Below are positions 4,984 through 5,011 of a DNA stretch of 6,885 bases, piece by piece (positions within the stretch are counted from its first letter, which is position 1; every line of letters starts with the position of its first letter). The stretch is from a virus (Duplodnaviria; Heunggongvirae; Uroviricota; Caudoviricetes). The stretch is taken from the IMG/VR virus record IMGVR_UViG_2541047122_000022. One strand, given 5' to 3'. The translations under genes and the position numbers were made by a program. The notes below the pieces were generated by a model. It was not told the DNA's origin. It made no database searches and saw only the letters and a list, made by a program, of their open reading frames with translations.

Positions 4984-5011
4984 ATGTTGATTACAAAAAT
5001 GTAATCAACAT
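4984..5011. repeat. Perfect inverted repeat ATGTTGATTACA-aaaa-TGTAATCAACAT (12-bp arms) in the AT-rich region upstream of the binding-protein gene; possible regulator binding site
   Basis: Direct reading: 4984-4995 is the exact reverse complement of 5000-5011. It lies about 165 bp upstream of the ATG at 5176. Confidence 0.5.

Follow-up and report, generated by a model that had tools for sequence, protein, structure and literature searches.

The window, a 6,885-nucleotide stretch of virus DNA (Caudoviricetes; IMG/VR record IMGVR_UViG_2541047122_000022), carries a long palindrome upstream of a gene for a 252-aa binding protein, and the question that it raises is what such an element does there. 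Direct reading and a repeat finder both recover ATGTTGATTACA-AAAA-TGTAATCAACAT, so that the 28-bp palindrome with 12-bp perfect arms proposed in an earlier note, made from the letters alone, is confirmed in its exact sequence and coordinates (4984-5011). When the whole window was shuffled 300 times with dinucleotides preserved, perfect inverted repeats (arms of 12 nt or more, loops of 20 nt or less) arose at a mean of 0.01 per window, which bears out that an arm of this length is improbable by chance, and the window contains two of them, at 4984-5011 and 6054-6077. The second (CCGATATGGGAATTCCCATATCGG) has 12-nt arms without a spacer and a central EcoRI site, and is flanked by the paa terminator and the sok/hokD locus, beyond the region shared with plasmids. 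The region of the first is AT-rich (GC 0.30-0.37) and stands upstream of the binding-protein gene (5176-5934), as had also been noted, with 165 bp from the palindrome to the ATG. What did not hold was the weight placed on the 12 perfect base pairs, since what is conserved is instead an inner 6-4-6 repeat together with a third half-site downstream, which falls outside the 4984-5011 interval of the earlier note.

Our reading is that the palindrome is a CusR/HprR-type activator site belonging to the promoter of the gene itself, paa, and would place it under host copper/silver and HOCl/H2O2 control; from sequence comparison, we give this a probability of about 0.75. The coordinates of the features are collected in Table 1.

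Genomic setting of paa

Positions 4700-5300 are 100% identical to a lambdoid prophage that about 600 out of 5,426 complete E. coli genomes carry, among them those of O157:H7 (EDL933), O26, O111, O103, O121, O145, and O55:H7. A 40-mer search of 5,426 E. coli genomes returned exclusively paa-linked copies, in 609 genomes. The gene order is a cI-like repressor, cro, ydaT, replication genes, a frameshifted DUF1627 gene, a small ORF, a "fimbrial protein" pseudogene, paa (annotated as "AcfC family adhesin Paa"), and hokD. The paa product matches Pfam SBP_bac_11 (E = 5.5e-34), and the gene is the adfO/z2053/ECs1772 of O-island 57 (OI-57), which adjoins ckf (PMC8565820, PMC2241611), described in a review as a phage-associated cell-killing factor (PMC8565820). 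We take ckf (z2054) to be the hokD gene of the window.

Several other elements were seen along the prophage. The Rfam sok antitoxin RNA (103.9 bits) overlaps the start of hokD (6123-6272 and 6270-6425), and a weak isrK-like match just past hokD (6434-6515; 24.9 bits) stays below the gathering score. Clustered direct repeats resembling lambdoid origin iterons are found at 2343-2539, inside a replication-initiator-like gene, with 24-nt units at 2343, 2432, and 2498 and CAAAGACACCCAAA at 2474, 2496, and 2526. Between the cI-like gene and cro (1256-1320), there are CTTAGG/CCTAAG-type repeats, with a 15-nt partner at 750-764, which are probably the prophage's own operators.

Homologues of paa with 85 to 89% DNA identity are carried by many plasmids of E. 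coli, E. albertii, Shigella, and Salmonella, and the similarity starts at 4972-4990 and stops near 5994. The left flanks of these copies are mutually unrelated (IS1 plus an STa toxin gene, IS3, IS21, a DUF305 operon, and others) and differ from that of the window (pixH), while the right flank is a shared IncF backbone near repA. No regulator gene accompanies the module, and the flanking genes differ between contexts. The left edge of the module is only 12 to 19 nt from the box, which makes the palindrome its extreme left, and left junctions cluster less than 20 nt from the box in several contexts, a pattern that we attribute to selection for an intact promoter. A mobile cassette with the palindrome as its terminal or recombination site was rejected, since the right end is shared plasmid backbone and there are no terminal repeats.

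To the left of the box, the remnant of the minor pilin gene is 86% identical to plasmid pixH over 4510-4974; the homology stops at about 4977, short of the palindrome, and intact pixH runs on into unrelated sequence. The RefSeq "fimbrial protein" pseudogene (4482-5015) crosses the palindrome to a stop at 5013-5015. Considering where the pixH homology ends, this annotation is over-extended, its last ten "codons" really being the proposed regulator box of paa, and the palindrome as fimbrial coding sequence was ruled out on the same grounds.

As in phage morons, paa has its own -10 hexamer, an upstream (here proposed) regulator site, a terminator, and a base composition unlike that of its neighbors, and it sits between genes of the phage operons, those for replication on one side and the nin region on the other. 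It is no phage-specific insertion but a module that different vectors share, since the same unit is carried by IncF-type plasmids and by a P2-like prophage of Providencia.

Table 1. Features of the paa locus in the window, with positions counted from its first nucleotide
Feature	Position	Strand	Remarks
pixH/papH-like minor pilin gene remnant	4510..4977	+	Frameshifts and internal stops; outside the regulatory element
paa module (box, promoter, gene, terminator)	4972..5992	+	About 1 kb; common to IncF-type plasmids
28-bp perfect palindrome	4984..5011	.	Lineage-specific extended form of the proposed regulator box
Palindrome arms	4984-4995 (ATGTTGATTACA), 5000-5011 (TGTAATCAACAT)		12/12 complementary; spacer AAAA at 4996-4999
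Box GATTACAAAAATGTAATC	4989..5006	+	18 bp; proposed CusR/HprR-type response-regulator site
Box half-sites	4990-4995 (ATTACA), 5000-5005 (TGTAAT)	+	4-bp A-tract spacer between them
Third half-site TGTAAGG	5011..5017	+	Direct repeat of the right half-site, 11-bp period
Putative -10 hexamer TATAAT	5038..5043	+	paa promoter
Ribosome-binding site GGAG	5166-5169	+	paa
paa/adfO (z2053, ECs1772)	5176..5934	+	AcfC-family periplasmic solute-binding protein, colonization factor
Terminator-like hairpin CGTCCTTCAGGACG, then T-run	5941..5964	+	Closes the paa unit; kept in plasmid copies

Conservation of the inner dyad

We aligned the upstream regions of 12 paa loci from the prophage and from plasmids of E. 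coli, E. albertii, and Salmonella. The most conserved 18-mer is ATTACAAAAATGTAATCA (4990-5007, that is, ATTACA-AAAA-TGTAAT-CA), with a mean identity of 99% that none of 20,000 column shuffles matched, and pairwise identities are 94 to 100% over these positions versus 26 to 77% for the rest (5008-5175). The inner 6 bp of the dyad are intact in every aligned locus but one. The exception, E. albertii plasmid pEA26_2 (L009), is alone among the E. coli-type loci in having a mutated box core (ATTGCA, at about 2015-2030), and its paa is frameshifted (2208-2525), which is consistent with relaxed selection on both.

Full pairing of the arms (12/12) is confined to the prophage lineage, falling to 10/12 in the two closest plasmid relatives and to 6-9/12 elsewhere. 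Positions 4988-4989 are TG in the prophage lineage versus AC, GC, GT, or TC in other loci; this TG pairs with the invariant CA at 5006-5007, and position 4984 has changed too. The dyad thus reaches 12 bp because the left flank changed in the prophage lineage. Judged from the alignment, that lineage acquired its 12-bp perfection recently, by extension of the left flank, and the extension lies outside the conserved element. We conjecture that the change was a template-switch correction of a quasi-palindrome, and the extension may modulate how tightly the site is bound or which regulator it prefers.

Resemblance to CusR and HprR sites

When compared with known regulator motifs, as the earlier note had suggested, the half-site of paa equals that of the published CusR/HprR box of hiuH. 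In E. coli K-12, the hiuH-hprR spacer reads CATTACAAAATTGTAATG-ctgc-TGTAAGG-21 nt-TATCCT and the cusR-cusC spacer AATGACAATTTTGTCATT-tttc-TGTCACC-21 nt-TAAAGT, and paa in the window reads GATTACAAAAATGTAATC-aaca-TGTAAGG-20 nt-TATAAT. All 19 specified positions (the two hexamers and TGTAAGG) are identical between paa and hiuH, and the half-sites of paa are one base per half-site away from the cusC box. Put in general form, the box is (A/T)T(T/G)ACA and TGT(A/C)A(T/A) with 4 A/T bp between them, to which ATTACA-AAAA-TGTAAT at 4990-5005 conforms. The hiuH sequence CATTACAAAATTGTAATG has been named as both the CusR and the HprR box (PMC9302797), and HprR has the same recognition sequence as CusR, both being single-target regulators in K-12 (PMC8249747).

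The box between hiuH (yedX) and hprR controls hiuH-msrPQ, which responds to HOCl/H2O2 and copper. It has in common with that of paa the ATTACA/TGTAAT half-sites, the 4-bp A/T spacer, the TGTAAGG 4 nt downstream, and the orientation relative to the regulated gene, with 21 nt (hiuH) versus 20 nt (paa) to a -10-like hexamer. They differ in the spacer (AAAA in paa versus AAAT in hiuH) and in the flanking bases (G...C versus C...G), and the paa flanks extend the dyad to 12 bp in the prophage lineage, unlike those of hiuH. They also differ in setting, since paa is a mobile colonization-factor gene without an adjacent regulator, whereas hiuH belongs to a core-genome operon divergent from its regulator. 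The cusRS-cusCFBA promoter shares with paa the 6-4-6 dyad and a third half-site 4 nt downstream (TGTCACC in cusC). The half-sites of the window are TTACA/TGTAA (HprR-type) versus TGACA/TGTCA in cusC and pcoE, but some paa loci and the neighboring DUF305 operon have TGACA or TGTCA variants, as in cusC.

The CusR palindrome AAAATGACAAnnTTGTCATTTT and the pcoE promoter site TGACAAnnTTGTCAT have been quoted together with Pseudomonas sites, namely, CTGACAn5GTAAT for CopR, ATTCATnnATGTAAT for CusR, and GAAACn6GTAAT for CzcR, with GTAAT common to them (PMC11195947). In Pseudomonas, the outcome at one palindrome, activation or competition, depends on the regulator (PMC11195947). The CopR, CusR, and CzcR palindromes have GTAAT in common with paa and differ in the left half-site and in the organisms; they are a case in which one palindrome serves several heavy-metal response regulators and acquired loci join core two-component systems. 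The suggestion of a dimeric regulator site is thus supported by the conservation, by the layout shared with hiuH and cusC, and by the published boxes, and can be specified as a putative CusR/HprR-type box.

Promoter layout and proposed mechanism

The conserved unit comprises ATTACA-N4-TGTAAT, 4 nt, TGTAAGG, 20 nt, and TATAAT. A TGTAA or TGTCA lies exactly 6 nt past the right-hand TGTAA in all paa loci, where the third half-site is always TGTAAGG, TGTCAGG, or TGTAATA, and the pattern TKACA-N4-TGTMA-N6-TGTMA has a single match in the window versus 0.01 expected. In all 12 aligned loci, a -10-like hexamer follows exactly 32 nt after TGTAAT (TATAAT in 10, TATAGT and TATGAT in the others). No recognizable -35 element exists in the paa promoter, where AGGTTT/GGTTTA occupies that place, and the third half-site abuts the position where a -35 would fall. 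With a predicted transcription start at about 5050, the box is centered at about -52.5 and the third half-site spans about -39 to -33. The same order of box, 4 nt, TGTMAnn, 20 to 21 nt, and -10-like hexamer is found in paa, hiuH, and cusC, with the start of paa being predicted. That the third half-site is a component of the box is our own observation, drawn from the sequences of these three promoters. The distance from box to -10 is fixed even though leader lengths range from about 56 to about 180 nt, which points to a role of the box in transcription initiation. A literature search for data on the paa promoter, its regulator, or its start site returned nothing usable.

The mechanism that we propose is as follows. 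ATTACA-AAAA-TGTAAT, with TGTAAGG 4 nt downstream, would constitute a "copper box," to be read by OmpR-type response regulators of the heavy-metal subfamily, which in E. coli are CusR and HprR (YedW); PcoR or SilR may act too where plasmids supply them. A dimer of the phosphorylated regulator would bind the inverted repeat near -52, as at cusC and hiuH, and would recruit RNA polymerase to a promoter with a good -10 and without a -35. Expression of the gene would then rise in response to periplasmic Cu(I)/Ag(I), sensed through CusS, and to HOCl/H2O2, sensed through HprS. We infer binding, start site, direction of regulation, and inducers by analogy, and both activation and the acting regulator (CusR, HprR, PcoR, or SilR) are candidates proposed from the DNA alone. 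It seems somewhat likely that paa/adfO is a direct and previously unrecognized target of CusSR and/or HprSR, an extra target located in the accessory genome, by which we would, with similar confidence, mean that of EHEC, EPEC, and porcine ETEC.

It had been suggested that the element could put the gene under host or phage control. The evidence points to the host, in the form of candidate two-component regulators: the operator region of the prophage (1270-1315) is unrelated and the site is also present on plasmids devoid of phage, and we do not read it as a phage operator.

Published expression data touch on paa under conditions that are not specific for copper or oxidants and are weak, circumstantial evidence. 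ECs1772 is upregulated more than 4-fold in early stationary phase (PMC2241611), and "acfC" is induced in rumen and rectum contents in a published transcriptome in which metal-efflux and oxidative-stress genes are also upregulated; clustering of the Sakai time course separates cusCFBA from ECs1772. We found no paper tying paa/adfO to CusR, HprR, or PcoR, and the exact motif is absent from the searchable literature. A 2026 study combined ChIP-seq of HprR (41 peaks, that at hiuH being 27-fold) with RNA-seq in O157:H7 and reported that HprR activates LEE and hiuH and promotes colonization (PMC13064566). Its main text does not mention paa, and the paa site may already be within its tables.

Homologues and similar patterns elsewhere

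Outside the aligned loci, a paa homologue of Providencia alcalifaciens (67% amino acid identity), beside the integrase of a P2-like prophage, is preceded by TTACAAAAATGTAAT-tattc-TGTAAT, with TATACT 33 nt past the first TGTAAT. The spacing from box to -10 is therefore within 1 nt of that of other paa loci, and the rest of the upstream region does not align to the window. The Providencia box is at 1375-1399 in L019, where the gene is frameshifted, and paa is intact in L232 (253-1134); its neighbors are genes for a 577-aa repeat protein and tail fibers. The box is missing from the paa homologues of the E. albertii chromosome, of Citrobacter and Edwardsiella, and of several Salmonella and E. coli plasmids, all of which have unrelated upstream regions, so it is not universal for the family. 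Two MAGs labeled Mucispirillaceae and Desulfovibrio contain paa homologues with 70 to 73% amino acid identity and no upstream box, which suggests either horizontal transfer to distant phyla or binning contamination.

Plasmids L008 (pE105-3) and L011 carry the generalized box twice, before paa and before an operon for a DUF305 protein and a beta-propeller protein. In L008, the second box (132-156) reads AATGACAAAAATGTAATC-ctta-TGTAAGG, with TAAAAT 20 nt downstream, and the genes for the DUF305 protein and a YncE-like beta-propeller protein (359-1781) lie directly upstream of the paa box. The two-box arrangement, present in L011 and in metagenome locus L274 as well, suggests a small copper-responsive island.

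We also scanned metagenome contigs with the 25-nt degenerate pattern TTACAARAATGTAATYAnnnTGTMA, and non-paa loci were characterized from ORF calls and Pfam/NCBIfam matches of representatives. Among the 58 matching loci, 17 are paa and 41 belong to several unrelated sequence families, some on contigs with a GC of 58 to 63%. The box adjoins a gene for an OEP-family outer membrane efflux protein of the CusC/CzcC type in seven loci. It also stands by a divergent response regulator that matches TIGR01387 (358.9 bits versus a cutoff of 279.2), defined in NCBIfam as "heavy metal response regulator transcription factor," by genes for Met/His-rich periplasmic proteins (eleven marine loci), and by genes for a HupE/UreJ protein and a YHS-domain protein (29.2 bits, just below the Pfam cutoff of 30.3). 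Elsewhere, then, the box is associated with copper or oxidant genes, while at paa no regulator gene is adjacent.

The eleven marine loci share (C/T)ATTACAA(A/G)AATGTAATC-N4-TGT(A/C)ATC upstream of small Met/His-rich secreted proteins, with a further TGATTACA just before the box and conserved "gatcta.gtcaattac" repeats downstream of it; they are probably copper regulons. A 15-mer scan of viral contigs gave matches that are mostly chance hits in AT-rich phages. Three AT-rich phage contigs, L220 (4941-4965), L223 (7621-7645, minus strand), and L257 (2759-2783, minus strand), contain TTACAAAAATGTAA-N6-TGTAA preceded by another copy of TTACAAAA and with good -35/-10 pairs just downstream (e.g., TTGACT-17-TATGAT); the pattern abuts the -35 in L220 and L223 and is about 10 nt away in L257. 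Such an arrangement may arise by chance where DNA is AT-rich, or it may be a recurrent element upstream of promoters.

Alternative explanations

A site for some other protein, repressor or activator (CpxR, PhoB, another OmpR-family member, or an unknown plasmid or prophage protein), is the most probable of the alternatives, although we consider it unlikely. GTAAT-N6-GTAAG loosely resembles tandem response-regulator sites, and cross-recognition between related regulators is documented (PMC11195947), but the identity to the hiuH box at every specified position argues against it, as do the unrelated prophage operators and the lack of a regulator gene traveling with the module. The consensus for CpxR is GTAAA-N5-GTAAA, that for CRP TGTGA-N6-TCACA, and that for FNR TTGAT-N4-ATCAA. 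An N6 version of the CpxR pattern with two mismatches occurs at chance level (9 found versus 6.5 expected), and neither the N5 version nor the CRP and FNR patterns match at the palindrome; TTGAT and ATCAA both occur, but at a distance of 12 bp and without conservation of the left one. Compared by eye with their consensuses, IHF, Fur, ArgR, TyrR, LexA, PhoB, RstA, PmrA, and ArcA sites, as well as LysR-type and AraC/ToxT-type sites, misfit in spacing and conservation. WATCAAnnnnTTR, which is IHF-like, fits the site apart from one mismatch and is not retained in Providencia. A prophage repressor operator was ruled out, the immunity region having its own CTTAGG/CCTAAG-type repeats. Nor do we give much credit to an element acting without any regulator, UP-like or bent DNA that touches the alpha subunit of RNA polymerase and offsets the missing -35. 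The site spans about -60 to -43, where UP elements sit, it is A/T-rich with an A5 tract, and good -35 hexamers directly adjoin the pattern in some phage contigs rich in A and T. However, C4994, G5001, and C5006 are invariant within a precise 6-4-6 dyad, an identical dyad is the experimentally defined CusR/HprR site (PMC9302797), and the pattern persists in the contigs of 58 to 63% GC, close to genes for heavy-metal regulators and for efflux.

The stem-loop closing the preceding region, also put forward in the earlier note, would be a terminator or insulator for early-operon or fimbrial-remnant transcription, or else a cruciform, and we regard it as very improbable. In the prophage lineage, the 12-bp stem is indeed stable (-14.3 kcal/mol, z = -3.7), and in the nearest relative the predicted value is -13.1 kcal/mol. 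However, loci in which the core is preserved give -6.4, -2.8, and -2.4 kcal/mol (z near 0 or above it), which indicates selection on sequence, not structure. There is no U-tract or T-run on either strand, the terminator scan makes no call, Rfam has no match at the palindrome, and the DNA to the left is locus-specific, so there is no conserved incoming transcript. Just as improbable is a functionless relic, either a promoter piece brought along from a gene under copper control or a quasi-palindrome that mutations made perfect. The module does have a patchwork make-up, the pixH remnant lying at its left and its right end being of plasmid origin, and the 12-bp perfection is due to a few lineage-specific changes of the left flank; against this, the core is far better conserved than the neighboring noncoding DNA, the box is kept across genera with its spacing to the -10 fixed, and the sole mutated core, that of pEA26_2, goes with a dead gene.

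Implications

With the palindrome read as a CusR/HprR-type activator site, the paa promoter would, somewhat probably on present comparisons, be a further target of a known regulator family in the accessory genome. No regulator of paa/adfO was found in the literature searched, and the gene is in use as a virulence marker of EHEC, EPEC, and porcine ETEC. If our reading is true, signals of host copper and of the oxidative burst would be linked to a mobile colonization factor, with copper in the gut or phagocyte and hypochlorite or peroxide coupled to paa expression. Copper feed supplements in pigs would then matter for the expression of paa, which was first found in the pig gut. It would also complement the 2026 report that HprR promotes LEE expression and colonization in O157:H7 (PMC13064566). 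Regulators regarded as "single-target" in K-12 would gain targets when horizontal transfer delivers a module together with its operator, as paa would take its own box along in moving between IncF plasmids, lambdoid prophages, and a P2-like prophage of Providencia.
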